Shown: one piece after another, positions 44,073 to 60,601 of the stretch
How positions within the stretch are numbered: position 1 is the stretch's first letter
How the letters are laid out: every line of letters starts with the position of its first letter
From: Desulfovibrio sp.
GTDB lineage: Bacteria; Bacillota; Dethiobacteria; DTU022
NCBI GenBank assembly: GCA_020060545.1
Contig: JAGUZX010000131.1
Location: 856-64,855, forward strand
DNA length: 64,000 bases
Reading direction: 5' to 3'
The notes under the pieces: generated by a model
The model's input: only the letters and a program-made list of their open reading frames with translations
What the model was told of the DNA's origin: nothing
Databases searched by the model: none
Program-made: the position numbers and the translations under genes

Positions 44073-44179
44073 GCTTCACACTCCGCTGTCGATGATTGGA
44101 AGAAAATAGCCGCACCGGCAGCGATGCGGCTGCGTTCTTACCTGAACTCTGGCGCCCGGCGCCCGGGCTCATGGTGACG

Positions 44180-44671
44180 CTACTGCTGGGGGTTCTCTCC
44201 ACCCTCATGCCCCTGGTTCTCTCCACCTTCTTGCCCCTCTTGCCCCTGTTGGCCCCGGTTGTCCTGCTGCGTTTCGTGGTCCCCCAGGAATTCGGGGAAA
44301 GAGGCGATCTCCCCGCCTTCGGCCGCGGGGCTGACTTCGGTGCGGGCGTAGCGGAAAAAGAACCATTCCGCCACACCGATCACGGCTGCGGTGGCCAGGA
44401 TTACCCCCGTCCCGAGGGGCTCGCGGACAAACGCGTTGGCCAGGGAAAGCACTACCGCGGCAATCACAAAATTGGCGATCGCCGCGGCCAGTGTTCCGAA
44501 GCGCGGCAGCAAAAATCTGTCACCGGCGAAATACAGCACCAGGGTAATAAACAAAGCGATGATCATGGAAGAACCGAGGCTGACCGAAGGGACGAGGAGG
44601 TAGGTCAGAAAGATGATCGTAATGGCGGCGGTATAGATATACTTAATTATGAGCGGCCTGATATGCTCCAT
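44180..44671 (-). CDS. DUF2512-family membrane protein with a Gln/Gly/Glu-rich tail
   Basis: The ATG at 44671 follows GAGGAAGGGGGTG. MEHIRPLIIKYIYTAAITIIFL...GDRFLLPRFG... The C-terminus is QQDNRGQQGQEGQEGGENQGHEGGENPQQ. Confidence 0.6.
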   Translation of the reverse strand: MEHIRPLIIKYIYTAAITIIFLTYLLVPSVSLGSSMIIALFITLVLYFAGDRFLLPRFGTLAAAIANFVIAAVVLSLANAFVREPLGTGVILATAAVIGVAEWFFFRYARTEVSPAAEGGEIASFPEFLGDHETQQDNRGQQGQEGQEGGENQGHEGGENPQQ

Positions 44672-44828
44672 GTTGTTCACCCCCTTCCTCAACTTATACT
44701 TTTCCCCGTACCTCTTTTAATCATTCCCACCGGAGGCAAATAATTTTACCCGCCCGAAGCAGGATATTTCTGTCACATGTCGAATAATTTTGATTAATTT
44801 CCAGCCTAGGTTAAAGGGGTGTAATCAG

Positions 44829-45086
44829 ATGGAACGGGAAGAAATCGGCCGGGTAGAACATTTTTACAGCAAAATTTCCGTGGCCATAATTGGACTGGAG
44901 GGCGAGTTAAAAGTGGGAGACAGGATTGCCGTAGTCGGCCCGAAAACCGACCTGGTGCAGGTGGTCAAGTCTCTCCAGGTGGAGCATCAGAACATCGAAG
45001 CGGCCAAACCGGGTGACCTGGTCGGCTTAAAGGTGAAAGAAAAAGTCAGGGAAGGGGATCGTGTTTTTAAGCTGAACGAAAAGTAA
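44829..45086 (+). CDS. Small EF-Tu-domain-2-like beta-barrel protein (translation elongation factor-like protein)
   Basis: The ATG follows AAAGGGGTG. 85 aa. VGDRIAVVGPKTDLVQVVKSLQVEHQNIEAAKPGDLVGLKV resembles EF-Tu domain II. Confidence 0.5.
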   Translation: MEREEIGRVEHFYSKISVAIIGLEGELKVGDRIAVVGPKTDLVQVVKSLQVEHQNIEAAKPGDLVGLKVKEKVREGDRVFKLNEK

Positions 45087-45176
45087 AGAGAGTGCCTCGC
45101 GCTGCAGGCCGGGAGCCGTTTCGAGGCGGCCGGCAGCGGGTGCATTATTGAACCGGTGATTCAACCTCTTGTCGGC

Positions 45177-46091
45177 TCATTCCAGGCAATTGCTCATCTC
45201 TTCAGCAAGGTTTGCGCTTAGTTGCAAAAGGCGGGATGCGGCTTCCGCAAGCCGGGATTCATACAGGTAAACGGCGTGGATCTCCCGGTTAAAAACTGCA
45301 CCGCTTATTTCCAGCGGGACCAGTGTTTTTAGCCTGAGCTCCTTGCCGATGGCCCAGCCTGAAATAATCGCCGCGCCGAGGCCGGCTTCCACCGCGTTTT
45401 TAATCGCTTCAAGGCTGTAAAATTCGGCGATGATTGTCAGCCGCTCCAGGGCCAGGCCCATTTCGGAGAGAGCTTCTTCCATTTCCTGGCGGCTGCCGGA
45501 ACCGCGCTCACGGACGATTAAAGGCAGCTCCGGCAGTTCTTCTTTTTGAATCCGCTTCCGCCCGCTCCAGGGATGGCCGGCCGGGACAACCAGCACGAGT
45601 TTATCTTCAAGGAGCTTTTGGGCGTGCAGGTTCCGCCCGAACGGTTTCCCGGCCATGAAACCCAACTCCACCTCTCCTTCTTTCAGGAGGGCGTAAATCT
45701 GGCGGTTATTGCCGATTTCCAGGCTGTAGCTGATTTGAGGGTAGCGGCGGCTGAACTTTCCCAGCAACCCGGGCAGGATATACTCCCCAAAAGTCGGACT
45801 GGCCCCCAGGCGGAGATGCCCCCGGAGCGTGCCCCGCAAATCGGTCAGCTCGTTTTCTACCTGGATGGAGCGGTTTTTTAACTCCCGGAGCTGTTTGTAA
45901 AGAGCGGCGCCGGCTGGAGTCAGCTCGAGGCCGCGGGCATGGCGGAAAAACAGCTTCACCCCGAATTGATCTTCCAGTTTCTGAATGGCGGTGCTTACGG
46001 CGGGCTGTGAGATGTTTAAATCCCGTGCGGTCCGGGTAATATTCCCCGCCTGGGCCACCCTGATAAATATCTCAATTTTGTAATCAAGCAT
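45177..46091 (-). CDS. LysR-family transcriptional regulator
   Basis: N-terminal HTH FIRVAQAGNITRTARDLNISQPAVSTAIQKLE. 304 aa. Divergent from the DASS transporter gene. Confidence 0.9.
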   Translation of the reverse strand: MLDYKIEIFIRVAQAGNITRTARDLNISQPAVSTAIQKLEDQFGVKLFFRHARGLELTPAGAALYKQLRELKNRSIQVENELTDLRGTLRGHLRLGASPTFGEYILPGLLGKFSRRYPQISYSLEIGNNRQIYALLKEGEVELGFMAGKPFGRNLHAQKLLEDKLVLVVPAGHPWSGRKRIQKEELPELPLIVRERGSGSRQEMEEALSEMGLALERLTIIAEFYSLEAIKNAVEAGLGAAIISGWAIGKELRLKTLVPLEISGAVFNREIHAVYLYESRLAEAASRLLQLSANLAEEMSNCLE

Positions 46092-46244
46092 CGCTTCGCC
46101 TCACCCGGTTCTATTCTATCATACGGCCGTCCCGCTGCCAAAGGAACGATAAGCAAAAGTAATCCCCGGATAAACAATTCAAATTTTACAGCCGCAGCCG
46201 GGCTTTCTATAATAAAAACAAGAGCACTGATCTCCGGGAATGGA

Positions 46245-47720
46245 GTGTTTATCGCCTTGACGCAGTTGGAAGCCGGAAAGAAGCTGATTGTTTTAGACGG
46301 CAAGGCCCCGGGTTTGCTCGCGGCGCTGGCGGTCCTGGTTGGGGTTAACCTGATTCCCCTGGCGCTATTTCCGATCGGTGCCGCCGGGGAAGCCGTCCTG
46401 ACGTCCCAGGGGCGGGGCGCGCTGGCCGTTCTCGGCTTTGTAATCGTGCTGTGGATGACCGAAGCGCTGCCTTTTGCCGTTTCCGCGCTGACCGGGCTCC
46501 TGCTGGTACCGGCTTTCGGCCTCGCTTCCTTCAGCGATACCGTGGCTTACGGTTTCGGGAACCCGGTAATCGTATTTTTTATCGGCGTGCTCATTATCTC
46601 GGCGGGGCTCACCCGCTCGGGCCTGGCCGGCCGGCTGACGCAGTTGATCCTGGACCGGATTGGGCTGAGGCCACGCCGCCTGGTCCTTACTTTTCTGGTT
46701 GTCGGGGCGGCCCTTTCGATGTGGATCGTCAATATGTCCGCGGCGGCGATTTTGCTCCCGGTCGCTTTGAATATTTTGCGCCGGGCCGGCGCCGCTCCCC
46801 GCGGGAGCAACCTGGGGCGAGCCCTGATGATCGCCGTGGCCTGGGGGCCGGCGATCGGGGGTATCGCCACACCCGTAGGCAACGGGGCCAATATCGTGGC
46901 CCTGGGCTTCCTGCGCGAGATGGCCGGGATGCGGATCGATTTTTTGCGCTGGATGGCGGTGGGGGTGCCGGCGGCTGTCTTAATCCTGCCTCTGGCCTAC
47001 CTGGTCTTGATCCGGGTGTTCCCTCCCGAACCGCTGGAGCTGCAGCAGGCGAATTGCGCGGCGGCGGGTCCTGCCGCGCCGGGGTTGCAGCCCGCGGAGC
47101 TAAAAGCACTGCTTATTTTCAGCGCGGCGGTGTTTTTCTGGGTGGGGGATCCGGTCTTGCAAATGCTGACCGGCAGATCCATTCCGATTGAAGCGGTGGC
47201 GCTCGGCGCGGCGGTTGCCTATTTCCTGCCCGGGATCAATATCCTGACCTGGAAGGAGGCCCAGGAAGACATCGATTGGGGCGGTATCGTGCTCATCGCG
47301 GCGGGGTTGTCCCTGGGGATGGTAGTTTACCAGACGGGGGCGGCGCGCTGGCTTGCGGTGGCGGCGTTGTCGCCTTTGGGCGGCTTGGGCCTGTTCTGGC
47401 GCATCATCCTGGCGGTGCTGGCCGTGGAGCTGCTCAAGGTGTTTTTCTCCAGCAACACCGTCACCGGGGTGATCCTGGTGCCCTTGGCCATCGCCCTGGC
47501 CGCGGACTTTGCGGTAGACCCGTGGCTCCTGGCCGGCCCGGTAGCGATAGCCACCTCCCTGGCCTTCCTGATGGTCACCTCCAGCCCGACCAATGTGATC
47601 CCTTACGCCTCGGGGTATTTTTCGATCAAGGATTTCGCCAAGGCCGGCATCCCGTTGACCCTGCTGATCCCATTTTGCGTCGCCCTGGCCTTCATTCTTT
47701 TTGCGCCGCTAGTCCGCTGA
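46245..47720 (+). CDS. DASS/SLC13 (ArsB/NhaD superfamily) anion transporter
   Basis: 491 aa, polytopic, with duplicated SNT/SPTN hairpin motifs (FSSNTVTG and TSSPTNVIP). The start is uncertain. Confidence 0.7.
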   Translation: MFIALTQLEAGKKLIVLDGKAPGLLAALAVLVGVNLIPLALFPIGAAGEAVLTSQGRGALAVLGFVIVLWMTEALPFAVSALTGLLLVPAFGLASFSDTVAYGFGNPVIVFFIGVLIISAGLTRSGLAGRLTQLILDRIGLRPRRLVLTFLVVGAALSMWIVNMSAAAILLPVALNILRRAGAAPRGSNLGRALMIAVAWGPAIGGIATPVGNGANIVALGFLREMAGMRIDFLRWMAVGVPAAVLILPLAYLVLIRVFPPEPLELQQANCAAAGPAAPGLQPAELKALLIFSAAVFFWVGDPVLQMLTGRSIPIEAVALGAAVAYFLPGINILTWKEAQEDIDWGGIVLIAAGLSLGMVVYQTGAARWLAVAALSPLGGLGLFWRIILAVLAVELLKVFFSSNTVTGVILVPLAIALAADFAVDPWLLAGPVAIATSLAFLMVTSSPTNVIPYASGYFSIKDFAKAGIPLTLLIPFCVALAFILFAPLVR

Positions 47721-47871
47721 TATTTCGCTCTTTTGCGGCGGCCCCGGGCAGGAAATGGAACGGCGCTGCAGAATAGTGACACAGCATCATTTTTTTTTAG
47801 TTTCAAGTTTTGCAAAATTTCGCCTTGCTTGAATTAATTCTATTTTAATCCAAAAAGGAGGCGTTTTAAAG

Positions 47872-49290
47872 ATGCTGGCCGGTGTCAATTGGGATTCCCT
47901 GCTTGTTTTTGCCTTCCTCAGCCTTTTCCTGGTCGTGGCCACGTTGCTGCGCAGCCGCATTTCGATTCTGCAAAGGTTTTTAATTCCGAACAGTATCCTG
48001 GCCGGGGTGCTGGGGATTATTTTCGGCCAGTACGTGTTCAAGGTGATCGATCCCAACCGGATGGGCGATTATGTCTACCACCTGTTAACCCTGGCTTTTA
48101 TCGCCATGGGGCTGCGCGGCTCCAGGGTCAAGCGCAGCTACGGGACCGTCACCACCATGGTTGTCCACTGCAAGGGCTACGCCATGCAGGGGCTGCTGGG
48201 GATGATCTTCACCCTGGTTGTTATCCTCACCTATATGCCGCGCCTTTTTCCCGCCTTCGGGCTGCACCTGGTGATGGGATACGGCAACAACCCGGGCGTG
48301 GCTTACAGCTTCGGGCAGGCCTGGGAGGCGATGGGCTTTACCGGGGGAGCCCAGGTCGGCCTGACTTTCGGCGCCCTCGGCTTTGTTTGGGCTTATATTG
48401 TCGGCATCATGATTATTAACTGGGGAGTGCGCCGCAACAAGACCGCCCTCTTTAAAGGTTACCACGAGCTGCCGGCCTCGGTTTTTAAAGGGGTCGTCGG
48501 CAGGGACGAGCCGAAAAAGGAGGCGGGGAAGCTGGTCACCTCCGCCGAGGCCGTGGAATCGCTGGCGCTGCAGCTGGCCATCGTCGGCACGGTCTTTCTG
48601 GCGGCATACTATTTTCTCCGGGCCGTAATCGGCGGCCTGGATAACCTCGGCGAAACCGGCCACGACCTGGCCAAGCTGATCGGGGGGTTCGGCTTTATCT
48701 TCGGGATCCTCTTTGCCCTGCTGCTCCGCTGGATTATGGAGCTGCTGCGGATCGACCACGTGATCGATCAGGGCCTGATGTCCCGCTTGGGCGGCACTTT
48801 TGTCGATTACATGATCGCCGCCTCCGTCGCCGCCATCTCCTTGAGCATGATCCGCGCTTACTGGCTGGAGATCGCCGTTCTTTCCACCCTGGGAGGGCTG
48901 GCCACCCTGGCCCTGGTTCTGTTCCTGGTGAAAAGGATGCACCGGGACTTCCACTTTGAGCGGGCGCTCTCCTCTTTCGGCCTGCTGACGGGGACGGTGG
49001 CTTCCGGGTTGGCCCTGCTGCGGGTGGTCGATCCCCACTTTGAAACCCCGGTGGCCGAAGACCTGGTTTACGCCGGCGGGCTGGCTTTGTTTACCGGCAT
49101 TCCCATATTACTGCTGGCCAATATGCCCGCCGCGGCTTACCTGGGCGGGGAGTCGCTCCCGGGGCTGATCAAAACCATTATCCTGGTGGCGGCTTATGTC
49201 GTGGTTCTCTTTATCGGCTGGAAGATCTACCAGGTCCTTTTCCTGCGCCGCCTGAAGCGCGCCGGCGAGGCCGGCGCCGTTTCCAAATAG
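47872..49290 (+). CDS. Sodium/glutamate symporter family (GltS/ESS-like) transporter
   Basis: AAAAGGAGG acts as RBS. The N-terminus LLRSRISILQRFLIPNSILAGVLG parallels E. coli GltS ..FLKKYTIPEPVAGGLL. 472 aa, polytopic. Confidence 0.55.
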   Translation: MLAGVNWDSLLVFAFLSLFLVVATLLRSRISILQRFLIPNSILAGVLGIIFGQYVFKVIDPNRMGDYVYHLLTLAFIAMGLRGSRVKRSYGTVTTMVVHCKGYAMQGLLGMIFTLVVILTYMPRLFPAFGLHLVMGYGNNPGVAYSFGQAWEAMGFTGGAQVGLTFGALGFVWAYIVGIMIINWGVRRNKTALFKGYHELPASVFKGVVGRDEPKKEAGKLVTSAEAVESLALQLAIVGTVFLAAYYFLRAVIGGLDNLGETGHDLAKLIGGFGFIFGILFALLLRWIMELLRIDHVIDQGLMSRLGGTFVDYMIAASVAAISLSMIRAYWLEIAVLSTLGGLATLALVLFLVKRMHRDFHFERALSSFGLLTGTVASGLALLRVVDPHFETPVAEDLVYAGGLALFTGIPILLLANMPAAAYLGGESLPGLIKTIILVAAYVVVLFIGWKIYQVLFLRRLKRAGEAGAVSK

Positions 49291-49347
49291 ACGCCCATGT
49301 CCCCGGCTGTATGGAAACACCGAATGTTAGGCCGGCTTGAACGCCGG

Positions 49348-49402
49348 TGAAACTAAAGTGCCAGGCGCCGGCGTGAACTTGGGCGCCTGGCACCTCAGTT
49401 CA
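49348..49402. repeat. Palindromic element family P, locus F
   Basis: ...AAAGTGCC-A-GGCGCCGGCGTGAACTTGGGCGCC-T-GGCACCTCAGTTCA. Confidence 0.75.
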
Positions 49403-49515
49403 TGCTCCTTTTATGGCCCCGGGTTCAGGCAGCACTTATTTGGCGGCCCCGGGAAAAGGGTTTTTAGCCTCCATCGCGAATTAAAAGATTTATCTGTTTT
49501 GCGGAGGGCGGAGGA

Positions 49516-50259
49516 TTGAATATTTCCGAACTGCAGCCGCGGGACTGCGCCGTAAAAAGCGGGCCAACCTGGCGGGGGCTGGCCAGGGGTGCGCCGATCA
49601 TGATCGGTTACGCGCCGATCGGGTTTGCCTTCGGGGTCCTCGCTTCGACCGCCGGGTTGAGCGTCGGCGGCGCCGCGGCCCTGTCCGTCTTCGTCTACGC
49701 CGGCTCGTCCCAGTTTATTGCGGTGGGGTTAATCGAAGGAGGAGCCGGACCGTGGGCCCTGGCGTTGACCGTTTTCATGGTCAACCTGCGCCACCTGCTG
49801 ATGAGCGCCTCCCTGGCCCCCTACCTGGGGCGGTTGAGACGCCTGGAGCAAGCTTATTTTAGTTTCGAGCTTACCGATGAGTCGTTCGCCGTGCACAGCG
49901 CCTATTTTCAAAACGGCGGTGAGCCTGAGGCGGCCTCGCTTTTTGCCGTGAACACCTCGGCCCACCTGGCCTGGGTGGCCAGCTCCCTGGCGGGGGCTTG
50001 GCTCGGCAGCAGGCTGGCCTTCGACACCCGTATCTTCGGCCTTGACTACGCCCTGGCGGCCATGTTCATCGCTTTGCTGGTCTGCCAGCTGGGCAGCCGG
50101 CGCCGTGTTTTAATCGCCCTGCTGGCGGCGGGCCTCTCGACGGCGCTATATTTGGGCGGATCAGGGCACTGGTATATTATCCTGGCCACCCTGGTTGCCG
50201 CCACGGCAGGGGCTTTGACCGAAAAAGCGCAGGCGCCGGAAGAAGGTGAGCGAAGGTGA
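49516..50259 (+). CDS. azlC: AzlC-family branched-chain amino acid transport protein
   Basis: GYAPIGFAFGVLA...YAGSSQF...NLRHLLMS motifs. TTG start after GGAGGGCGGAGGA. Confidence 0.8.
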   Translation: MNISELQPRDCAVKSGPTWRGLARGAPIMIGYAPIGFAFGVLASTAGLSVGGAAALSVFVYAGSSQFIAVGLIEGGAGPWALALTVFMVNLRHLLMSASLAPYLGRLRRLEQAYFSFELTDESFAVHSAYFQNGGEPEAASLFAVNTSAHLAWVASSLAGAWLGSRLAFDTRIFGLDYALAAMFIALLVCQLGSRRRVLIALLAAGLSTALYLGGSGHWYIILATLVAATAGALTEKAQAPEEGERR

Positions 50260-50585
50260 CGGCGCAGCAGTATTTTCTGGCTGTCGTCCTGATGGCCCTG
50301 GTGACTTACCTGCCGCGGCTCCTGCCGGTGCTGCTGCTCTCGAAGCGCGGCCTGCCCGCCCCCCTGGTGCGCTGGCTGTCTTATATCCCGGTGGCGGTCC
50401 TGGCGGCCATGCTGGGCCCGCTCCTGCTGGCCCCCGCGGGAACCTTCGACCTTCTCCCTGCCCGGAACCCCGGGTTTTGGGTTTCTCTCCCCGTCTTTCT
50501 GGTAGCCTATTTTACCCGCAACCTTTTCGCCACCGTCCTGCTGGGCATGGCCGCGATCGCCCTCTGGCGCCTGCTGCTGTGGTGA
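50256..50585 (+). CDS. azlD: AzlD-family protein
   Basis: Start overlaps the azlC stop. 109 aa, 4 TM helices, TYLPRLLPVLLL motif. Confidence 0.8.
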   Translation: MTAQQYFLAVVLMALVTYLPRLLPVLLLSKRGLPAPLVRWLSYIPVAVLAAMLGPLLLAPAGTFDLLPARNPGFWVSLPVFLVAYFTRNLFATVLLGMAAIALWRLLLW

Positions 50586-50612
50586 CAGTTGGGGACGGGG
50601 CAATTTTGTCAC
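50582..50612. repeat. 31-bp element family T, copy 2
   Basis: GTGACAGTTGGGGACGGGGCAATTTTGTCAC. The azlD TGA stop lies inside it. Confidence 0.85.
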
Positions 50613-50683
50613 GTTTGTGACGGTCGCGACGGAACAGTATTCGGGCCACCTTTGATGAACGGCTTGCCTCGCGTGCTATTGTA

Positions 50684-50712
50684 TTGACAGACCCGTAAAG
50701 CTGAGCTAAGAT
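50684..50712 (+). promoter_or_regulatory. Sigma-A-type promoter of the hut operon
   Basis: TTGACA-17 nt-TAAGAT, 112 nt upstream of the hutH start. Confidence 0.6.
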
Positions 50713-50748
50713 GAAAAAAGAAAAAACAAACCGGTTGCCTGTTGCTCA

Positions 50749-50765
50749 GAGACGGCAGACACCAG
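50749..50765 (+). promoter_or_regulatory. Candidate HutP-binding site (NAG-N4-NAG-N4-NAG) in the hut leader
   Basis: GAGacggCAGacacCAG ends 2 nt before the terminator stem. B. subtilis HutP binds three (U/N)AG triplets spaced by 4 nt. Confidence 0.5.
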
Positions 50766-50767
50766 GG

Positions 50768-50801
50768 AGCACATGGGGATCCCCCGCGTGCTTTTTATTT
50801 T
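50768..50801 (+). terminator. Leader terminator (attenuator) upstream of hutH
   Basis: AGCAC-at-GGGGA/TCCCC-gc-GTGCT hairpin followed by TTTTTATTTT. It lies between the promoter and the hutH RBS (GGGAGGG). Confidence 0.65.
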
Positions 50802-50824
50802 AATTACGGGAGGGTGATTTACCG

Positions 50825-52378
50825 ATGGGTGGATCCATTCACTTGAGCCCCGTTTCCGGCCCGGTGGAAATTGACGGCGGCGGCATGACCATTGAAGAGG
50901 TGGTGCAGGTCGCCCGCCGCGCCAGGGAGGTAACGCTGTCGCCCTCTTCGATCGAGCGGATCGCCGCCTCCCGGGCCATGCTGGAAAAGCTGGTCCGGGA
51001 AGAAAGGGTTGTCTACGGCATCACCACCGGTTTCGGCCGGTTCAGCGACGTGGTCATCTCCAAAGAAGACGCCGCCCGGCTGCAGAAGAATCTGATCGCC
51101 AGCCACGCCGCGGCGGTCGGGGAGCCGCTGCCCGCAGAGGTTGTACGCGGGGCGCTTCTGCTGCGGGCGGTCGCCCTCGCCGGGGGGTATTCGGGTGTCC
51201 GGCCGCTGGTCGTCGAGCAGCTGGTGGCCCTCTTAAATAAGGGGGTCGTGCCGCTCGTACCCTGCCAGGGCTCCCTGGGGGCCAGCGGAGACCTGGCCCC
51301 GCTGGCCCACCTGGCGCTCGTGCTCACCGGCCAGGGGGAGGCGTTTTTCCGGGGGCGCCGGATAAGCGGGGCGGCCGTCCTGGCCGAGGCGGGGATGGAA
51401 CCGGTCACGCTGATGGAAAAAGAGGGGCTGGCGCTGATTAACGGCACCCAGATCATGACCTCGCTCGCCGCCCTGGCGGTCTTTGATGCGGGGAACATCG
51501 TCAAAGCGGCGCAGATTACCGCCGCGTTAACCCTGGAGGCACTCATGGCTGTGCCTGACGCATTCGATCCGCTGCTTGCACGGGTCCGCCCGCACCGGGG
51601 CCAGGCGCGCACGGCGCGGAACATCGTCCGCCTGGTCGAAGGAAGCGCCCTGATCGGCGCGGACCGCCGCAAAGTGCAGGATGCCTACAGTTTGCGCTGC
51701 ATCCCTCAGGTCCACGGGGCTACCGCCGACGCACTTGATTATGTGCGCGGCGTAATCGAGGTAGAGATTAACTCCGTCACCGACAACCCGCTCCTGTTTG
51801 TCGAAGAAGGGCGCGTCTTATCCGGAGGCAATTTCCACGGCCAGCCGGTAGCCCAGGCCATGGATTTCCTGGCTATCGCCGTCGCCGAGCTCGGCAGTAT
51901 CGCCGAGCGGCGCGTGGAAAGAGCGGTTAACCCGTCCCTCAGCGGATTGCCCCCTTTTTTGATCCATGAGGGAGGGCTCAATTCGGGTTTCATGATCGCC
52001 CAGTACACCGCCGCTTCCCTAGCCTCCGAAAACAAGGTCCTTTGCCACCCGGCCGGCGTCGACTCGATCCCCTCCTCGGCCAACCAGGAAGACCATGTCA
52101 GCATGGGCGCCACCGCCGCGCGCAAAGCGCGCCAGGTTGTGGAAAATGTAAGCCGGATTTTGGGGATCGAGTTGTTAACTGCGGCCCAGGCGGTCGATTT
52201 TCGGAACCCGCAAAAAATGGGCCGGGGCACGGCTCTGGCGCACAGGCTGCTGCGGGAAGAGGTCCCGTTCATCGCCCGGGATCAACCGCTCTATCCGCTG
52301 ATCAACCGGGCGGTGGAACTGGTCTCCGGCGGGCGGCTGGTAGAAGCGGTAGAAAAGGAAATTCCCCTTGAGCTGTAG
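50825..52378 (+). CDS. hutH: Histidine ammonia-lyase
   Basis: MIO-forming segment GSLGASGDLAPLAH. Family blocks include YGITTGFG, NGTQ and QEDHVSMG. Confidence 0.95.
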   Translation: MGGSIHLSPVSGPVEIDGGGMTIEEVVQVARRAREVTLSPSSIERIAASRAMLEKLVREERVVYGITTGFGRFSDVVISKEDAARLQKNLIASHAAAVGEPLPAEVVRGALLLRAVALAGGYSGVRPLVVEQLVALLNKGVVPLVPCQGSLGASGDLAPLAHLALVLTGQGEAFFRGRRISGAAVLAEAGMEPVTLMEKEGLALINGTQIMTSLAALAVFDAGNIVKAAQITAALTLEALMAVPDAFDPLLARVRPHRGQARTARNIVRLVEGSALIGADRRKVQDAYSLRCIPQVHGATADALDYVRGVIEVEINSVTDNPLLFVEEGRVLSGGNFHGQPVAQAMDFLAIAVAELGSIAERRVERAVNPSLSGLPPFLIHEGGLNSGFMIAQYTAASLASENKVLCHPAGVDSIPSSANQEDHVSMGATAARKARQVVENVSRILGIELLTAAQAVDFRNPQKMGRGTALAHRLLREEVPFIARDQPLYPLINRAVELVSGGRLVEAVEKEIPLEL

Positions 52379-52456
52379 AACTGTTCTTAGAGATTCGCCT
52401 TTTGCCGTCTAATGAAAGGGCAAGGGCAATGAAAAACCAAACCGGGGGGAAAAAAG

Positions 52457-52894
52457 GTGGAGCAGATCGGCAGAACGGCGATTATGTTCGCCCTCTCCCA
52501 GGGGACGATGGAAGAGCAGATCAGGCTGGAAGCGGCGGAAAACGGGTTTACCTTGCTTAAGGGGCGGGTCGGGTCGATGAGCAGTGAAAAAATATTTGCC
52601 GCCGTGGAAACGGCCGCGGCGCGGGAAAACCTGATCCGCAAAGAGCTCTACCGGGAAACCCACGCCCTCTATCACGCCGCCCTGGACGCATTTGCCGGTA
52701 TCTGCCGCGGCCAGGTGGGGCTGGGGAGCATGCTGCGCACCGTGGGTTTGATTTTCACCGTAGCCCGGGGGCCGCGCAGCGTTGAACAGCGCGAAGACGG
52801 CGACTGGATCGCCGTGGTCCTCTACGGGACGATCGGCGCCCCGGTGAAGGGGTTCGAGCATGAAACGATCGGCCTGGGGGTCAACCACCTCTAA
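52457..52894 (+). CDS. hutP: HutP, the histidine-responsive RNA-binding antiterminator
   Basis: Aligns along its whole length with B. subtilis HutP as I recall it: GRVGSMSSEKIFAAVETA, YRETHALYHAALDA, LGSMLRTVGL, GDWIAVVLYGTIGAPVKGFEHETIGLGVNHL. Confidence 0.9.
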   Translation: MEQIGRTAIMFALSQGTMEEQIRLEAAENGFTLLKGRVGSMSSEKIFAAVETAAARENLIRKELYRETHALYHAALDAFAGICRGQVGLGSMLRTVGLIFTVARGPRSVEQREDGDWIAVVLYGTIGAPVKGFEHETIGLGVNHL

Positions 52895-52982
52895 CTTGAA
52901 GCTCGAACCTTGGAAGCAGGAGGTAGAAAGCAGAAGGTTGGAGACAAACCGCCCGTCTTCCGGCCCCCAAGCGGCGAGATTT

Positions 52983-53053
52983 ATCGATCGGGAGAACGGT
53001 CCTCTTGATCGATAGCCAGGAAAACGTCCCCCTGTTCTAGCCTCTTGATCGAT
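52983..53053. repeat. Hairpin repeat family H (stem + GAGAACGGTCC/CCGTCCCC core), hutP-hutU spacer
   Basis: ATCGATCGGGAGAACGGTCCTCTTGATCGAT, then ...AACGTCCCCC...CCTCTTGATCGAT (partial second copy). Confidence 0.7.
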
Positions 53054-53067
53054 GGGAGGTGTTTCGC

Positions 53068-54720
53068 ATGGAAAGAGAGATCCGCGCGCCCCGCGGCACC
53101 GCCCTCAGCTGCAAGGGTTGGCCGCAGGAGGCGGCCCTGCGCATGCTGATGAACAACCTTGATCCCGACGTGGCTGAAAACCCGCAGGAGCTGATCGTCT
53201 ACGGCGGAAACGGCAAGGCGGCGCGCAACTGGGACTGTTTTGACGCCCTGGTGAAGACCTTGCGCCGCCTGGAGGGCGACGAAACCCTGCTGGTCCAGTC
53301 GGGAAAGCCGGTGGCCGTATTCAAGTCCCATCCCGACGCGCCCCGGGTGCTGATCGCCAACTCGCTCCTGGTGCCCCGCTGGGCGGACTGGGAGCGCTTC
53401 CGCGCGCTAGAAAGGCTGGGGCTGACCATGTACGGCCAGATGACCGCCGGCAGCTGGATCTACATCGGCACCCAGGGCATCCTGCAGGGCACCTATGAAA
53501 CCTTCGGCGCAGTAGCCCGCCACCATTTCGGGGGCAGCCTGAAAGGGAAACTTGTGCTTACCGCCGGACTCGGCGGCATGGGCGGCGCCCAGCCGCTGGC
53601 GGTGACGATGAACGAGGGCGTGGTGATCGCGGTCGAAGTCGACCCGGCGCGCATCGAGCGGAGGCTCAAGACCGGCTACTGCGACCGCACGGCGCAAAAC
53701 TTGGACGGCGCCCTCGCCATGGCCCGTGAAGCCGCCTGCCGGGGCATACCCCTCTCCATCGCCTTGCCCGGGAACGCCGCCGCGGTGTTCCCGGAAATCG
53801 CCAGCCGGGGGGTAATCCCCGACGTGGTGACCGACCAGACATCGGCCCATGATACATTAAACGGCTATATCCCCGACGGGATCGAGTACGAGGCGGCGCT
53901 GCGCTTGAGAAAGGACGACCCCGCGGAGTACCAGCGCCGCGCGGCGGCATCGATCGCCAGGCATGTCCGGGCCATGGCCGAGATGCAAAAGCAGGGCGCC
54001 GTCGTCTTCGACTACGGCAACAATATCCGCCAAGCCGCCCTGGATGAAGGGTATGCCGACGCTTTCGCTTTTCCCGGGTTTGTGCCCGCCTATATCCGGC
54101 CCCTCTTTTGCGAGGGGAAAGGGCCCTTCCGCTGGGTGGCGCTTTCCGGCGACCCCGCCGATATCGCCCGCACAGATCGGGTAATTCTGGAGCAGTTTTC
54201 GCACGACCCGCACCTGGTCCGCTGGATCAAGACGGTCGGGGAGAAGGTCCGCTTCCAGGGCCTGCCGGCCCGGATTTGCTGGCTCGGTTACGGCGAGCGG
54301 GCCCGTTTCGGGGCGATTATCAACGACCTGGTGGCCGCGGGTGAAATCAAGGCCCCGATCGTGATCGGGCGGGATCATCTGGACTGCGGCTCGGTGGCAT
54401 CGCCCAACCGCGAAACCGAGGCCATGGCCGACGGCAGCGACGCGATCGCCGACTGGCCGATCTTGAACGCCCTGGTCAACACCGCCGGCGGGGCCACCTG
54501 GGTCTCCGTGCACCACGGGGGAGGGGTGGGGATCGGTTATTCCCTGCACGCCGGGATGGTGGTCGTGGCCGACGGAACCCCTGAGGCGGCCCGGAGGCTG
54601 CAGCGGGTCCTGACCACGGATCCGGGTCTCGGGATCGCCCGCCACGCCGACGCCGGTTACGAGGCGGCCCGTCAAAGCGCCCGTGAAAACCGGCTCGATA
54701 TCCCGATGCTGGACAGGTAA
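53068..54720 (+). CDS. hutU: Urocanate hydratase
   Basis: The ATG lies 6 nt after GGGAGGTG. Conserved blocks: [75 protein letters not shown]. Confidence 0.95.
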
Positions 54721-54738
54721 AAGGTTAGGGTCTGGATG

Positions 54739-54841
54739 TCAAGGGAACCGTCCTTTGATATAGATAGAAAATATATATCAAGAGAACCGTCCCCTTGATA
54801 TACGTCCCCTTGATATATATCAAGAGAACCGTCCCCATGAT
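54739..54841. repeat. Hairpin repeat family H, array of 3.5 units in the hutU-methyltransferase spacer
   Basis: TCAAGGGAACCGTCCTTTGA; TATCAAGAGAACCGTCCCCTTGATA; CGTCCCCTTGATAT (half unit); TATCAAGAGAACCGTCCCCATGAT. Confidence 0.8.
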
Positions 54842-54864
54842 CTATTTTGGACAGGAGTGATCAA

Positions 54865-55668
54865 ATGCTGATTGTCGGAGAAAAAATCAACACCAGTCGT
54901 AAAACGGTCAAGGAAGCGGTGGAAAAAAGGGACGCCGCCTTTATCCGGGCTCTGGCCCGCCGCCAGCTGGAAGCGGGCGCGGACTACATCGATGTGAACT
55001 GTGGGACCTTTCTTCAAAATGAACCGGAGCTGCTGAGCTGGCTGGTACGGGAAGTGCAGGATGAACTGGACGGGCGCCCCCTGTGCATCGACAGCCCCAA
55101 CCCCGCCGCCGTGGAGGCCGCCCTGGAGGCGCACCGGGGCACGGCGATGCTGAACTCGATCAGCGGGGAAAAAGAGCGCTACGCGGCGCTGGAACCGCTG
55201 ATCGTGCGCCACGGCTGCAAGGTGGTCGTGCTCTGCATGGACGACGCCTCCGGGATCCCCCCCGATGCGGCCACCCGCTTCCAGATCGCCTCCCGGATCA
55301 TTGAAAGCCTGGTCCAAAAAGGGGTTAAACCCGATGATATCTACGTGGATCCCCTGATCCAGCCGATCAGCGTGGACACGAAAAACGGGCTTTCCGCCGC
55401 CGAGACGATCCGCCTGGTGCGGGAGCGCTACCCCGGTGTCCATGCCATCTGCGGCCTGAGCAACATCTCTTTCGGGCTGCCGGAGCGCAAGCTGTTGAAC
55501 CAGGCTTTTATGGTCGTCTGCGCCGCCTACGGGCTCGATGCCGTAATCCTCGACCCCGAGGACCAAAAGATGATGGCCTTGGTTCATGCCGTCGGAGCGC
55601 TCCTGAACCGTGACCCCTACTGCGGCGCCTACCTCAAGGCTTACCGCAGGGGTAGCCTTACTCCTTAG
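54865..55668 (+). CDS. Pterin-binding (DHPS-like TIM barrel) methyltetrahydrofolate:corrinoid methyltransferase family protein (MtgA/MtvA/AcsE-like)
   Basis: The ATG lies 4 nt after AGGAGTGA. MLIVGEKINTSRK...GADYIDVN...LCIDS...LNSIS...VDPLI...GLSNISFGLPER.LLN are the pterin-binding family blocks. Confidence 0.8.
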   Translation: MLIVGEKINTSRKTVKEAVEKRDAAFIRALARRQLEAGADYIDVNCGTFLQNEPELLSWLVREVQDELDGRPLCIDSPNPAAVEAALEAHRGTAMLNSISGEKERYAALEPLIVRHGCKVVVLCMDDASGIPPDAATRFQIASRIIESLVQKGVKPDDIYVDPLIQPISVDTKNGLSAAETIRLVRERYPGVHAICGLSNISFGLPERKLLNQAFMVVCAAYGLDAVILDPEDQKMMALVHAVGALLNRDPYCGAYLKAYRRGSLTP

Positions 55669-55816
55669 CCGGAAGGCATGTTCCCAGGTTCTTTTAGATT
55701 TAACCGGCGCTGGCAGAGGTTGAGTGAAATGGAGGGGAAATATCCACCCGCAATCCGACTTTTGACCTTTGACCTCTGAACCTAGACCTCTGACTGCCAG
55801 TATGAGAGGTGCTTTC

Positions 55817-56446
55817 ATGCTGAAAGAACAAACGCTCGAACAGTTTGCCGCCGCGGTGAGCTCCGGCAGCCCCACCCCCGGCGGTGGGAGCGTTGCCGCC
55901 CTGGCGGGGGCGCTGGGAGCGTCGCTGCTCGCCATGTACTGCTTCTTAAGCGCCGGCCTGGAAAAATACGGGGCGGCGGCGCTGCTGCTGGAACAGGCCG
56001 GGCTGGAAGCGCGGGCGCTCGCCGCAAGCCTGCTGCTGTCCGTCGACCGGGACGCCGGCGCGTTCGACCGGGTCATGGAAGCCTACCGCTTGCCGAAAGA
56101 GGCCCAAGCGGAAAAAGAGCGGCGCCGGCAAGCGATCCAGGCGGCGCTCGTGGAGGCCGCCCGGGTCCCGCTGCATACCGCCCGGGAGTGCCTGCGCGTG
56201 CTCGAACTGGCCGGTGCCGTTGCCGGGCGGGGGAACCCTTCCGCGGTGACCGACCTGGGTGTGAGCATTCTCCAGGGATGGTGCGGCCTGCAGGGCGCCT
56301 GTTACAACGTTCTGATCAACCTGGCTTCAATTGCGGATGAAAAAATAAGGGCGGAGCTTTCCCGGGAGGCGGCCGAGCTTACCGGCCGGGGCGAGCGGGT
56401 TTTTGCCGAAAACCGGCAGAAGCTTGAGCAAGAGATCAAAAAGTAA
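55817..56446 (+). CDS. Formiminotetrahydrofolate cyclodeaminase / cyclohydrolase family protein
   Basis: FAAAVSSGSPTPGGGSVAALAGALGASL is the signature N-terminus of the FTCD_C cyclodeaminase family. The protein is all-helical, 209 aa. Confidence 0.85.
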   Translation: MLKEQTLEQFAAAVSSGSPTPGGGSVAALAGALGASLLAMYCFLSAGLEKYGAAALLLEQAGLEARALAASLLLSVDRDAGAFDRVMEAYRLPKEAQAEKERRRQAIQAALVEAARVPLHTARECLRVLELAGAVAGRGNPSAVTDLGVSILQGWCGLQGACYNVLINLASIADEKIRAELSREAAELTGRGERVFAENRQKLEQEIKK

Positions 56447-56659
56447 GCGCGCAGCGTGCGGGCGCGCCGCCGGCGGCGACCGCGCGCTTATCCTGCCGCT
56501 GCACCGCCTGCATCGGCGAAAAGGTTATTCACCTGCCGGCGGGCGTTTGTGGAAACGCAAGGCAAACCGGGCCTTTGCCGCTGCCGGTATCTTTTGGCAG
56601 CACTCAGGCCCGGGGGCGAGCGGAATTATTTTCCCCTGGCGGGATCGGAGGGGTGCAGG

Positions 56660-57562
56660 ATGGCTGAAATGATTCAGTGTGTCCCCAATTTTAGCGAAGG
56701 GCGCCGCGGCGAAGTGGTCGAAGCCCTGGCGGACCAGATCAGGGCGGCCGGGGGGGTAAAGCTCCTGGATTATTCTCTCGACTGCGATCACAACCGCTCC
56801 GTTTTTACTTTCGCCGGCGGGCGAGGGGAGGTATTGGAAGCCGCTTTCCGCGCCGCCCGGAAAGCGGCCGAGCTGATCGATCTGCGCCGGCATCGCGGCG
56901 GGCACCCCCGCATGGGGGCGGTGGATGTCATCCCCCTTGTCCCGGTTTCAGGCGTGACCATGGCCGAATGCGCCGCCGCGGCGCGGGAACTGGGCCGGAG
57001 AATCGGTGACGAGCTGGCTATACCGGTTTTTCTCTACGAGGAAGCCGCCTCCGCGCCGGAAAGGCGGAGCTTGGCTGCCCTCCGGGCGGGCGAATTCGAG
57101 GGGCTGCAGGCGGCGATCGACGGGGGCAGGAAACCCGATTTCGGTCCCGCCAGGGTTCACCCCACGGCGGGAGCGGTGGCGGTGGGCGCCAGGAGGCCGC
57201 TGGTGGCGTTTAACGTCAACCTGAACACCGCGGATGTCGCCGTGGCCAAAAAGATCGCCGCGGCGGTGCGGGAAAGCAGCGGCGGGCTGGCCAATGTCAG
57301 GGCCCTGGGCGTCTACCTCGCGGAACAGCAGAAAGCCCAGGTCAGTATGAACCTGGTCAACTGCGACGCCACCCCGCTCCACCGTGTCGCCGAGTTGGTC
57401 CGGGTGGAAGCGGCCCGCTACGGGGTCGCCGTGGCGGAAACCGAAGTGGTGGGGCTGATCCCCCAGCAGTATCTCCTTGACGCCGCCGCCTATTACCTGC
57501 AGTTGAACCGCTTCACCCCTGACCAGGTCCTTGAAAAGCGGATTGCCGGGCAAACATTATAG
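56660..57562 (+). CDS. ftcD: Glutamate formimidoyltransferase
   Basis: The ATG follows GGAGGGG. MAEMIQCVPNFSEGRR..V...... D.DHNRSV.T..G, HPRMGA.DV.P. 300 aa. The track's 68-aa N-terminal extension is rejected. Confidence 0.9.
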   Translation: MAEMIQCVPNFSEGRRGEVVEALADQIRAAGGVKLLDYSLDCDHNRSVFTFAGGRGEVLEAAFRAARKAAELIDLRRHRGGHPRMGAVDVIPLVPVSGVTMAECAAAARELGRRIGDELAIPVFLYEEAASAPERRSLAALRAGEFEGLQAAIDGGRKPDFGPARVHPTAGAVAVGARRPLVAFNVNLNTADVAVAKKIAAAVRESSGGLANVRALGVYLAEQQKAQVSMNLVNCDATPLHRVAELVRVEAARYGVAVAETEVVGLIPQQYLLDAAAYYLQLNRFTPDQVLEKRIAGQTL

Positions 57563-57809
57563 TATGCAGGAATGCAGGAATTACAGGGACAGGGACAAGT
57601 TATACCCGGGCCGCATAACCGGTGCGACTTACTTTTGAACTGTCAGAGGGTTATAGCCACGCTGCGCCCGTGCATGCAGGTGAGACTTGTCCCGGTTGAT
57701 AGGTGTGAGCTTTACAGCTTTCAAGTCCCCTAGCCGTAGACGGCCTGCCGCCCGGCCTAAACAGAGGGGTTAAGCGAAGGTAAACAATTTTACCGGAGGA
57801 GGGCCTGCC

Positions 57810-59066
57810 GTGATCGAAGCGGATCTTTTCGTGAAAAACGCGTCCCAGCTCTTAACCCTGGCCGGGTCCAGCGAGACGCCCAAAAGGGGCGCCGCCCTGG
57901 CGGAACTGGGTGTCATCCGGGGGGGTGCTGTCGCCGCCCGGGCCGGGGAGATAAAGGCGGTGGGGAGAACGGCTGATTTGGAAAGTGAAATCAGCCTGCT
58001 GACCGGCGGGTGCGCCTACGATGCTTCCGGGAAGGTGGTCATGCCCTGTTTTGTCGAGCCGCACACCCACCTTGTTTTTGCCGGCAGCCGCCAGGACGAA
58101 TTTGTACAGCGCCTGCAGGGTAAAAGCTACCTGAAGATCCTCCAGGCCGGGGGCGGCATTTTGAACACCGTCAGGGCCACCGCCTCCGCCGGCCAGGACG
58201 AGCTGCTTTCCGCCGCGCGCCGCCGCCTGGATCTGTTCGCCCGTCACGGGGTTGGGACAGTGGAAATAAAAAGCGGTTACAGCCTGACGGTAGAAGGCGA
58301 ACTGCGCCTGCTGCGGGTGGTGCAGGAGCTGAGCCGGACTCACCCCCTGGACCTGGTCCCGACTTTCATGGGGGCGCACGCCTTTCCGCCGGTGTACCGT
58401 TCCCGCGAGGACGATTACGTCGATCTGGTAGCGGGGGTGATGATCCCCCGGGTGGCGGAAGAGAAGCTGGCCCGTTTCTGCGATGTTTTCTGCGATGTCG
58501 GGGTATTTACCCGTGAACAGGCCTGGCGCATCCTCACAGCGGGCAAAAACCACGGCCTGCAGCCGAAAATTCACGCCGATGAGCTGGCCTCATTCGGCGG
58601 GGCGGAGCTGGCGGCGGAAGTGAGAGCGGTTTCAGCGGATCATCTCCTGAAAGTATCGGGGGAGGGGATCGGGCGGCTGGCCCGGGCCGGGGTTGTGGCG
58701 GTCCTCCTGCCTGGCACCGCTTTTTTCCTTAACGAAGGTTTCGCCCCGGCCAGGCAAATGATCCGTGAAGGGGTGGCGGTGGCCCTTTCCACCGACTGCA
58801 ACCCGGGCTCCTCTCCGACCGAGGCGATCCACCTGATGCTGACCCTGGCCTGCCTGAAGATGAAGATGCTCCCAGCGGAAACCGTCAGCGCCGCCACGAT
58901 CAACGCCGCGCACGCCGTCGGGATGGCCCACCTGGTTGGGAGCCTGGAAAAAGGCAAACAGGCCGATATCCTTGTTCTGGACGCTCCCGACTATAACTAT
59001 ATCCCCTACCACTACGGCACCAGCCTGGTGGAGGCGGTTTTCAAAAAAGGCCGGCGCATAATTTAG
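57810..59066 (+). CDS. hutI: Imidazolonepropionase
   Basis: GTG after GGAGGAGGG. FVEPHTHLVFAG, KSGYSL, IHADE, SADHL and TDCNPGSSP blocks. Confidence 0.9.
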   Translation: MIEADLFVKNASQLLTLAGSSETPKRGAALAELGVIRGGAVAARAGEIKAVGRTADLESEISLLTGGCAYDASGKVVMPCFVEPHTHLVFAGSRQDEFVQRLQGKSYLKILQAGGGILNTVRATASAGQDELLSAARRRLDLFARHGVGTVEIKSGYSLTVEGELRLLRVVQELSRTHPLDLVPTFMGAHAFPPVYRSREDDYVDLVAGVMIPRVAEEKLARFCDVFCDVGVFTREQAWRILTAGKNHGLQPKIHADELASFGGAELAAEVRAVSADHLLKVSGEGIGRLARAGVVAVLLPGTAFFLNEGFAPARQMIREGVAVALSTDCNPGSSPTEAIHLMLTLACLKMKMLPAETVSAATINAAHAVGMAHLVGSLEKGKQADILVLDAPDYNYIPYHYGTSLVEAVFKKGRRII

Positions 59067-59124
59067 AAGTGAGAAGTGAGATGTTGGAAGTGAGAATCCC
59101 ACCCTCGGGGAGAAGCAACGCATT

Positions 59125-59152
59125 GTAGGGGCGCAGCACGCTGCGCCCCTAC
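59125..59152 (+). terminator. GC-rich hairpin after hutI (terminator-like)
   Basis: GTAGGGGCGCAGC-ac-GCTGCGCCCCTAC, a 13-bp stem. A TTTTT run occurs 13 nt further on. Confidence 0.5.
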
Positions 59153-59250
59153 GGGTGGGGGCGACTTTTTACCGGGTTGAGTATTCACGCTGGCGAAGAG
59201 CCTTTCCCTTTTTCCCTTTGTGTCTACAAAAGGAACGTTAAGGACCGTCC

Positions 59251-59826
59251 CTAGGTGTCCCTCCCCAGGTGCGCAAGCAGCTGCCGCTTTAAATCTGCCA
59301 GCGCGGCAGCGCAGGTGTCAAAAGCCCGGGCGGTTTCTGCTTGCCACCAGGCGGATCGTTCCGGGTTGGCGCCGTCGACGGCGCTGCCGCCGATGCCCGC
59401 CGCGCTCAACTGCTTCAGCAGCGCTTCCCGGCCTTCCTGCTCCGCCCGGTAACGGATTGCGGCAAGGCTGTCGCGGTGGCGCTGCCGGATCGACTCGGCG
59501 GCGGCGGCAAGGCTGCCGCTTTCTGCGCCGCCGTCCCGGCAGCGGTTCAGGGCCGCTGCGGCCCGTTCGATGTTGCCCGGATCCGCTCCCGCCACGATTG
59601 CCCTCAAGAAAGACTGCCTTGCTTTTGCGGCCGCTTCCTGCGGGTAGCGGTTGATGCTTTCCAGCACCTGCTCCAGCGTTGCTTTTTCCGACAGAAAGGA
59701 ACCGGCCAGGGCTTCCGCCGCCCGGATATATTTCTGCTGTTCATATGCCAGCGCCTCCCTGCCTCCGGCGGCCAGGTGGGCCGTCCGTTCCATGGCCAGT
59801 TCGCGGGACGATTTAATTTTAACCAT
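59251..59826 (-). CDS. Hypothetical helical protein (191 aa)
   Basis: The ATG at 59826 follows GGAGGTGAGG. MVKIKSSRELAMERTAHLAAGGREALAYEQQKYIRAAE... It is Ala/Arg-rich, and I recognise no family. Confidence 0.5.
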   Translation of the reverse strand: MVKIKSSRELAMERTAHLAAGGREALAYEQQKYIRAAEALAGSFLSEKATLEQVLESINRYPQEAAAKARQSFLRAIVAGADPGNIERAAAALNRCRDGGAESGSLAAAAESIRQRHRDSLAAIRYRAEQEGREALLKQLSAAGIGGSAVDGANPERSAWWQAETARAFDTCAAALADLKRQLLAHLGRDT

Positions 59827-59905
59827 CCTTTTCCTCACCTCCGGAAATATGATATCATAACGTTGATGTTTTGGGCTATGGCTGATCATAGAAGGAGGTC
59901 GCAGT

Positions 59906-60601
59906 ATGCGCATCAATGACCGGGTTTACGCTTATCCCTGGCGGGGCCGGGGCAACAACTGTAACAGCTATCTCTACAAGGGGAAGAAAACGGTGCTGTT
60001 CGATCCCGGCCACATTTACAACGAATTCCGTGAAAGCTGCCTCGAAGCCCTGGCGCGGCAGATGGCCGGCGACGGGTTCAGCCTTGAGGATATCGAACTG
60101 ATTTTATGCACGCACGCCCACCCCGATCATGTCGAGGCCGCCGGGATTGTGCGCGAGCGAAGCGGCGCCATGGTGGCGCTTCACCGGCAGGACGAATTTA
60201 TCCTCGAGGCGATCGAGCGGCGCTACGCCTCCGCCGCCGGCAAGGAGATCCCCGCCCTGCGGCCTGATTTCTATTTGCGCGAAGGGGACCTTGACCTGGG
60301 CCTGGAACAACCGGAGCAGATCCGCGTGATCCATACCCCCGGTCATTCGCCCGGCTCATCCTGCTTTTACCTGCCGCAGCAAAAAGCGCTCATCACCGGC
60401 GACACCGTTTTCGTCAACAGTATCGGCAGGTTCGACCTGCCCGGCGGAGACGAAGCCGTGCTCGGCGAAAGTGTCGCCAAGCTGGCCGGGCTCGGCGAAG
60501 TGGAGCTTCTCCTGCCGGGCCACATGGGCCATCTCGCCGGGGCGGAAGAGGTCCGGCAAAACTTTGCCCGGATCCGGCGCTTCTTCTTCGGCGAAAAGTA
60601 A
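59906..60601 (+). CDS. MBL-fold metallo-hydrolase
   Basis: CTHAHPDHVEAAG, TPGHSPGS and GDTVF motifs. Confidence 0.85.
   Translation: MRINDRVYAYPWRGRGNNCNSYLYKGKKTVLFDPGHIYNEFRESCLEALARQMAGDGFSLEDIELILCTHAHPDHVEAAGIVRERSGAMVALHRQDEFILEAIERRYASAAGKEIPALRPDFYLREGDLDLGLEQPEQIRVIHTPGHSPGSSCFYLPQQKALITGDTVFVNSIGRFDLPGGDEAVLGESVAKLAGLGEVELLLPGHMGHLAGAEEVRQNFARIRRFFFGEK

Follow-up and report, generated by a model that had tools for sequence, protein, structure and literature searches.

How is a histidine utilisation (hut) operon switched on when hutP, the gene of the antiterminator, lies behind hutH and thus downstream of the terminator it is presumed to control? The question is raised by contig JAGUZX010000131.1 of a Desulfovibrio sp. 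assembly (GCA_020060545.1, placed in the Dethiobacteria by GTDB), of which positions 856 to 64,855 were analysed, a stretch of 64,000 nucleotides called the window here. HutP is a textbook example of protein-mediated antitermination and has been studied almost only in Bacillus subtilis. Judged from its sequence and that of its relatives, the leader of the window's hut operon very probably carries a HutP-dependent, histidine-inducible attenuator ahead of hutH. The elements of this putative switch are the following, in window positions.

50684 to 50712, plus strand: sigma-70-type promoter, TTGACA (50684-50689), a 17-nt spacer and TAAGAT (50707-50712), with 10 of 12 consensus matches
50743 to 50747, plus strand: 5' strand UGCUC of a predicted closing helix, P0, with a single unpaired A next to it at 50748
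50749 to 50765, plus strand: predicted HutP-type site, GAG (50749-50751), ACGG, CAG (50756-50758), ACAC, CAG (50763-50765), with a 7-nt period
50764 to 50801, plus strand: intrinsic terminator, a hairpin (50764-50796) and then the U tract UUUUUAUUUU to 50801
50767 to 50771, plus strand: 3' strand GAGCA of P0, also the lower 5' arm of the terminator
50825 to 52378, plus strand: hutH, histidine ammonia-lyase (PF00221; NCBIfam equivalog TIGR01225, 693 bits against a cut-off of 539)
52379 to 52456, plus strand: hutH-hutP spacer, without a -10-like hexamer
52457 to 52894, plus strand: hutP, histidine-responsive RNA-binding antiterminator of 145 amino acids (PF09021; NCBIfam equivalog NF002838)

The promoter was the sole plus-strand match near the operon in a promoter scan, and would place the 5' end of the transcript near 50719-50721, with a leader of about 105 nt ahead of hutH. 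The predicted HutP site at 50749-50765 fits the published rule of three NAG triplets separated by four nucleotides. In the published motif, UAG-N4-UAG-N4-UAG, the A and G alone are read and the spacers are free (PMC2425495). The third NAG ends at 50765 and the terminator stem begins at 50764-50767, so that the two abut directly. The terminator consists of a lower stem GAGCAC:GUGCUU, an upper stem UGGGG:CCCCG and a loop AUC, with a computed energy of -16.7 kcal/mol for the core stem.

An earlier note, made from the window sequence, had described most of these elements. The promoter TTGACA-17-TAAGAT and the three NAG triplets with 4-nt spacing were found where they are listed above. The terminator, given there as 50768-50801, abutting the triplets and ahead of hutH, is essentially the one delimited here. 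The statement that the leader holds a single triplet block was correct, as no NAG repeats occur in 50766-50808. Its HutP ortholog between hutH and hutU corresponds to 52457-52894.

Could the triplet block be a chance match, in front of a terminator that is constitutive or controlled by something other than HutP? The pattern NAG-N4-NAG-N4-NAG was observed 22 times in the whole window against 19.2 expected in shuffled sequence, so there is no excess, and this frequency is what speaks for chance. Within the 111-nt leader the block arose in 1.4% of dinucleotide shuffles. Decisive support for the predicted site comes from its conservation in relatives. The window genome is a 2.5-Mb assembly, 95% complete, of a class represented by 149 species genomes in the collection used, and among the 72 other genomes in its family, 49 were found to encode a HutP ortholog. 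The comparison covered 29 related loci, 28 of the window's family (f1), with a HutP identity to the window of 66-79%, and one of family f2 with 52%. In every one of them hutH lies directly 5' of hutP. All 30 leaders, the window included, show YTCA, three NAG triplets and then a hairpin with a U tract. The triplet spacers are 4 nt long across these leaders, with one spacer of 5 nt in five loci. TTGAC(A/T) occurs upstream of the triplet site in 24 leaders, 23 of which have it at a distance of 54-77 nt.

In an alignment of 17 leaders, CTCA and the AG of every triplet were invariant, the first triplet base and the spacers varied, and the terminator stem showed compensatory changes. An invariant AG with a variable first base and variable spacers is the pattern expected from the published recognition rule. 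The HutP-type attenuator proposed in the earlier note is thus strongly supported by this comparison. Chance is further opposed by the HutP ortholog within the operon and by the occurrence of the same design after hutP in canonical Bacilli operons. An Rfam scan of 44000-64000 at E values up to 1 gave no match for the leader and returned only chance matches of microRNA type. The sole open reading frame (ORF) crossing the leader begins at ATG 50711, which falls within the -10 box and thus ahead of the probable transcript start, and has no His codons, for which reasons attenuation by a leader peptide was rejected. Taken with the conservation, a chance match is highly improbable.

One of the relatives (L042:2451-3951, plus strand, genome G009) has a broken hutH frame, seen as two overlapping tblastn pieces with an in-frame stop at about 3320. 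Its leader and hutP are intact, and the break is either a pseudogene or an assembly error.

The regulator encoded in the window is, by sequence, a clear ortholog of B. subtilis HutP. It scored 187.8 bits against NF002838, above the equivalog cut-off of 155, and 101.7 bits against PF09021 (cut-off 25). The B. subtilis HutP chains 1wmq and 1vea aligned over residues 3-145 with an E value of 6e-43, and PDB entries 1wmq, 1vea and 4ok9 matched over the full length with E values of about 1e-42 to 1e-43. Kumarevel et al. (2005) reportedly assigned His73, His77 and His138 to Mg2+, Arg88, Arg98 and Glu81 to L-histidine, and Thr56, Thr99 and Glu137 to RNA contacts. In the numbering of the 148-aa chain 1vea, the window protein is identical to B. 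subtilis HutP at all nine of these positions except for Glu81, which is Asp.

In B. subtilis, the three UAGs start at 498, 505 and 512 (site 498-514), the terminator occupies 515-553, and a second NAG-rich region, site II, lies 12-17 nt downstream past a GC-rich stem and is needed for antitermination in vivo (PMC2425495). No counterpart of site II was seen in the window, nor in any of the 30 terminators with the hutH-hutP order. The second triplet site being missing, this would be a one-site switch. A single triplet block, accompanied by a covarying closing helix, was found to be usual in groups other than those of B. subtilis and B. cereus, and NAG-rich terminator tops were visible in B. subtilis-like and B. 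cereus-like loci.

The following course of events is proposed. Transcription would start at 50684-50712 and produce the leader, in which the terminator would fold by default, so that most transcripts would stop before hutH. L-histidine and Mg2+ would activate the HutP hexamer, one face of which would bind the triplets, by homology with B. subtilis. The triplets would lie in a 19-nt loop closed by the 5 bp of the hairpin P0, and HutP bound to the loop would stabilise P0, as suggested by covariation. P0 would consume five of the six lower terminator pairs and leave the upper 5-bp hairpin, which would be too distant from the U tract to halt RNA polymerase. Read-through would then extend into hutH, hutP and hutU, and probably on to hutI.

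The helix P0 became clear only upon comparison of sites of other lineages. A set of 42 sites was aligned, from the window's family, families f2, f4 and f6 of its class, a metagenome-assembled genome of the Desulfitobacteriaceae, a Cohnella genome and the Bacilli, the latter with 22 genomes of canonical order. The sites were chosen by a rule blind to the flanks, except for register shifts of a few bases in three rows. The alignment shows a helix of 5 bp, separated from the triplet block by a single unpaired base on either side. Of its cells, 77% are paired, compared with 67.5% in shuffles, and the covariation score is 0.369 compared with 0.205; neither value was reached in 500 shuffles, and slid registers scored at most 0.18. 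One pair is CG in 25 sites and UA in 14, another CG in 32 and UA in 5, and a third pair occurs as AU, UA, UG, GU and GC. Cognate flanks pair over a mean of 5.2 bp, against 3.6 bp for flanks swapped between lineages (permutation P = 5e-5).

P0 and the base of the terminator are mutually exclusive, as the 3' strand of P0 provides five of the six lower terminator pairs. The computed energies are -10.4 kcal/mol for P0 with the upper hairpin and -4.4 kcal/mol for P0 alone, against the value given above for the terminator. The terminator, being the most stable, is the expected default fold, and the antiterminator would need help. These energies fit an inducible switch. On this evidence we slightly favour a reading of P0 as an antiterminator held in place by HutP.

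The same switch may be imagined without P0. HutP on the triplets would then melt the lower terminator stem sterically, and the complementarity of the 5' flank would be incidental. Steric melting of the stem after binding of the third triplet is the model proposed for B. subtilis, in which the 5' site is single-stranded and no helix like P0 exists (PMC2425495). The third NAG pairs with the U tract in most folds of the family, so that binding alone would shorten the stem, and the low stability of P0 by itself points the same way. The published model needs site II in vivo, however, and this site is missing here. It also leaves the invariant CTCA and the compensatory flank changes across lineages unexplained. 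Melting without P0 is for these reasons considered rather unlikely.

Several points nevertheless weigh against the proposed switch and its helix P0. The minimum free energy fold of the window has an upstream hairpin that hides part of the triplet site. RNAalifold, applied to 17 leaders of the family, returned the terminator only and no P0. The helix is short, and within the window's family three of the five pairs are nearly constant, so that the covariation comes mostly from comparisons between clades. The shuffle figures overstate the support, since the sequences are related and represent perhaps five or six independent events. The papers of Oda (2000 and 2004) and of Wray and Fisher (1994) may already discuss an antiterminator structure, as a "hut antiterminator RNA" is reportedly mentioned in the older literature. 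Finally, the published B. subtilis model does without a helix of this kind and relies on the second site in vivo.

A broader reading can be offered tentatively, at somewhat short of even chances for all its parts together. HutP switches in general, those of the Bacilli included, may clamp a loop of 19-21 nt closed by an antiterminator helix of the form GCYC-A ... G-GRGC, rather than melt the terminator from two sites. In some lineages, the same helix may serve as an anti-sequestor and make the hutH ribosome-binding site accessible. The window may represent the minimal one-site form, in which hutP has moved behind hutH and lost its own promoter, and the histidine switch would thereby be purely self-amplifying.

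To what extent the gene order makes HutP depend on its own action is the second question at this locus. The other order, hutP-hutH, is canonical and was found in family f6 of the same class; the order appears to have been inverted in the window's lineage. No description of a hutH-hutP order was found in a literature search. In the window, hutP lies 1.65 kb downstream of the terminator. The earlier note had concluded from this position that HutP synthesis would depend on read-through of its own target, in a positive feedback loop. A -10-like hexamer precedes hutP in 28 of the 29 related loci, at 37-61 nt. In 21 of them, it is an extended -10 (TGnTAAAAT, mostly TGATAAAAT) at 40-54 nt before the hutP start, and seven further relatives have a TAnAAT hexamer in the hutH-hutP spacer. 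As the -10 is kept, most relatives probably make some HutP without read-through, and the gene order alone does not force feedback.

The window seems to be exceptional in having lost the hutP promoter. The counterpart of the extended -10 reads TAATGAAAGGGCA at 52410-52422, no TAnAAT hexamer occurs within 110 nt upstream of hutP, and a single bare TAnnnT was found in the last 550 nt before it. A promoter scan of the plus strand from 50825 to 52456 gave no promoter-like site. The feedback claim of the note thus fits the genome of the window. Strict positive feedback, with HutP made only by leak-through and by its own action, is probable for the window genome on these grounds.

There would be no real feedback if hutP had its own promoter, missed by the scans, and HutP were present before induction as in B. 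subtilis. The hexamer kept in nearly all relatives suggests a lineage in need of independent expression, and consensus scans are blind to weak promoters or those of alternative sigma factors. A weak or non-canonical hutP promoter could indeed exist and would count against strict feedback. The altered sequence at the position of the -10 and the empty scan argue against this explanation, which we consider doubtful. Strict feedback in the window genome is preferred.

A HutP-type terminator in front of hutP also occurs in the classical gene order. In family f6, and likewise in f4, a triplet block and an intrinsic terminator were observed 5' of hutP (L062:4493-4529, minus strand; L064:3944-3981 and L002:4295-4331, both plus strand). 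HutP would thus control its own gene even in these operons.

Further HutP sites were sought throughout the window genome. A pattern search gave 5 matches against 14 in the control, and a scan for the loop with its helix gave 111 against 182 in a reversed-sequence control. The full design of triplets and helix was found solely at the hutH leader. The hutP-hutU spacer holds a second NAG block and a repeat, listed here with the remaining features of the operon.

52917 to 52933, plus strand: second NAG block, CAG GAGG UAG AAAG CAG, between hutP and hutU, a weak candidate for a HutP site
52983 to 53013, plus strand: REP-type inverted repeat ATCGATCGGGAG..CCTCTTGATCGAT, with a third arm copy at about 53046-53058
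53059 to 54720, plus strand: hutU, urocanate hydratase (TIGR01228, 961 bits), likely start ATG 53069 after GGGAGGTG
54847 to 55668, plus strand: methyl-tetrahydrofolate:corrinoid methyltransferase-like gene, in the same-strand hut block
55769 to 56446, plus strand: cyclodeaminase/FchA-like gene, in the same-strand hut block
56456 to 57562, plus strand: ftcD, above the NCBI equivalog threshold
57810 to 59066, plus strand: hutI, above the NCBI equivalog threshold
near 59120 to 59170: terminator after hutI

The second block raises the possibility of two-site action at a distance, in which the blocks in the leader and at 52917-52933 act together, the latter as a second checkpoint before hutU or as the partner of the second hexamer face. 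Three spaced NAGs occur 11 times on the plus strand of the 64-kb window, twice within hut spacers and once directly beside the hutI stop codon. Among the relatives, hutU of L048 is preceded by four triplets and a GC-rich hairpin (P = 0.027), and five triplets occur in L044 (P = 0.001). The block of the window, on the other hand, arises in about 10% of shuffles and has neither a U-tract terminator nor a canonical closing helix. Among three relatives with hutU after hutP, a block follows hutP in L048 and is absent in L051 and L065. Heptamer repeats like those after hutI recur elsewhere in the genome. Two-site action is considered improbable, and a switch at the single leader site is preferred.

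The repeats after hutI were observed at 59064-59095, directly after the stop codon, where tandem GAAGTGA heptamers produce UAG and GAG triplets at HutP spacing. They were rejected as a HutP site, similar repeats being present on contigs C23 and C61 of the assembly, and are probably a genome-wide repeat.

The inverted repeat before hutU has a related hairpin after this gene, at 54736-54803, so that repeats bracket hutU. They share a core ..GGAGAACGGTCC.. enclosed by AT-rich arms, the ends of which read TTGATCGAT or TTGATAT. Ahead of hutU there are one and a half copies in the spacer, the additional arm stopping immediately 5' of the hutU ribosome-binding site. These are probably genome repeats that have no part in the switch.

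The products of hutH, hutP, hutU, ftcD and hutI all scored above the NCBI equivalog thresholds. Judged from strand and spacing, the genes through hutI are probably co-transcribed with hutH. A minus-strand ORF of 418 aa at 54820-56076 has no family match, overlaps two plus-strand genes and is very probably spurious.

The same genome has a second gene of the HutP family (contig C74:16629-17009, minus strand; 134 aa, Pfam HutP with 163 bits). It adjoins a DUF4349 gene, far from any hut gene. As a component of the switch it was rejected, with no match to HutP in PDB or NCBIfam and no triplet repeats nearby.

Just downstream of hutP, most relatives have a conserved gene other than hutU (L038-L041, L043, L044, L046, L047, L049 and L050), the product of which starts ..AEYRSNYSQQLSP.. 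We take this gene to resemble the MttB-family methyltransferases of the non-pyrrolysine type. The hut block of the window has, in its stead, the methyl-tetrahydrofolate:corrinoid methyltransferase-like gene at 54847-55668. The two methyltransferase-like genes hint, as a speculation, at a link between histidine breakdown and the demethylation of methylated histidine, for instance hercynine.

Triplet blocks were also observed in other layouts. The hutP-hutH spacers of canonical order in families f6 and f4 (L062:3845-3963 and L063:3880-4013, minus strand; L064:4483-4600 and L002:4855-4972, plus strand) contain a triplet block with the closing helix and no terminator. Immediately 3' of the block follows GGGUUUGCCA or GGUUGCCAUC, which pairs with UGGCAA(C)C at the beginning of the hutH coding sequence. 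The resulting helix encloses the hutH ribosome-binding site and start codon and is a perfect 10 bp in L002. HutP may control hutH translation in these families, a role not described for HutP.

In Lysinibacillus-like genomes, UAG-N4-UAG-N4-UAG follows the -10 box of the hutP promoter at a distance of a few bases and occupies the extreme 5' end of the transcript, with no terminator behind it. The block was located as follows.

L003, 5916 to 5932: Lysinibacillus-like triplet block, with matching places upstream of hutP in L078, L079, L080 and L082

An unexplained report exists of HutP activating the hut promoter in B. subtilis (PMC12591593), and the 5'-end block may relate to it. In three further loci, a triplet block and a terminator separate hutP from downstream genes that do not belong to hut (L055:4415-4600, L056:859-960 and L004:6503-6600, all plus strand). 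Three triplet blocks precede a 2-oxoacid:ferredoxin oxidoreductase-like gene in L055.

The switch of the window would work like that of the B. subtilis hutPHUIGM operon (HutP structures 1wmq, 1vea and 3BOY in PDB). Both have an orthologous regulator, histidine catabolism as the target and three NAG triplets with 4-nt spacers that end directly at the 5' arm of the terminator. Two defining features of the B. subtilis switch are lacking and a helix is added. The order in B. subtilis is hutP-hutH with the switch after hutP, and in the window hutH-hutP with the switch as the 5' leader of both. B. subtilis has a second triplet-rich site, whereas the window has none in or after the terminator. The model published for B. 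subtilis (PMC2425495) lacks the covarying 5-bp helix by which the site of the window would be closed into a loop. The pathways differ as well, with formimidoyltransferase and cyclodeaminase (ftcD, fchA-like) in the window and hutG in B. subtilis.

The logic is shared with the RAT switches of BglG, SacY and LicT, such as E. coli bglGFB, in which an RNA-binding protein under ligand control stabilises a weak antiterminator hairpin overlapping the terminator's 5' arm. P0 shows the property that defines this type, an alternative helix, here supported by covariation, which shares bases with the terminator 5' arm. In bglGFB, the terminator lies in the 5' untranslated region ahead of the regulator gene, and the regulator controls its own synthesis (PMC12591593). 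RAT proteins are unrelated to HutP and are CAT-PRD dimers that bind a helix, in contrast to the HutP hexamer, which would bind a single-stranded loop. Their signal is phosphorylation by the sugar transport system, that of HutP free histidine with Mg2+. TRAP (MtrB), acting on the B. subtilis trp leader, is like HutP an amino-acid-activated ring oligomer that binds repeated (G/U)AG triplets among competing hairpins (PMC2425495). It reads 11 triplets with 2-3 nt spacers and terminates by disrupting an antiterminator, compared with three triplets, 4-nt spacers and antitermination here. The two folds differ.

A review of 2025 lists HutP for Bacillus species alone. The loci described here indicate that HutP systems with a different operon layout occur throughout a family of uncultured anaerobic Bacillota, and suggest that one triplet block suffices in nature. 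A simple mechanism, different from the published two-site melting, would be provided by a covarying helix in competition with the terminator. Having apparently lost the hutP promoter, the window genome would be a natural case of an antiterminator wholly dependent on its own read-through, and such a self-dependent HutP circuit could give all-or-none induction.

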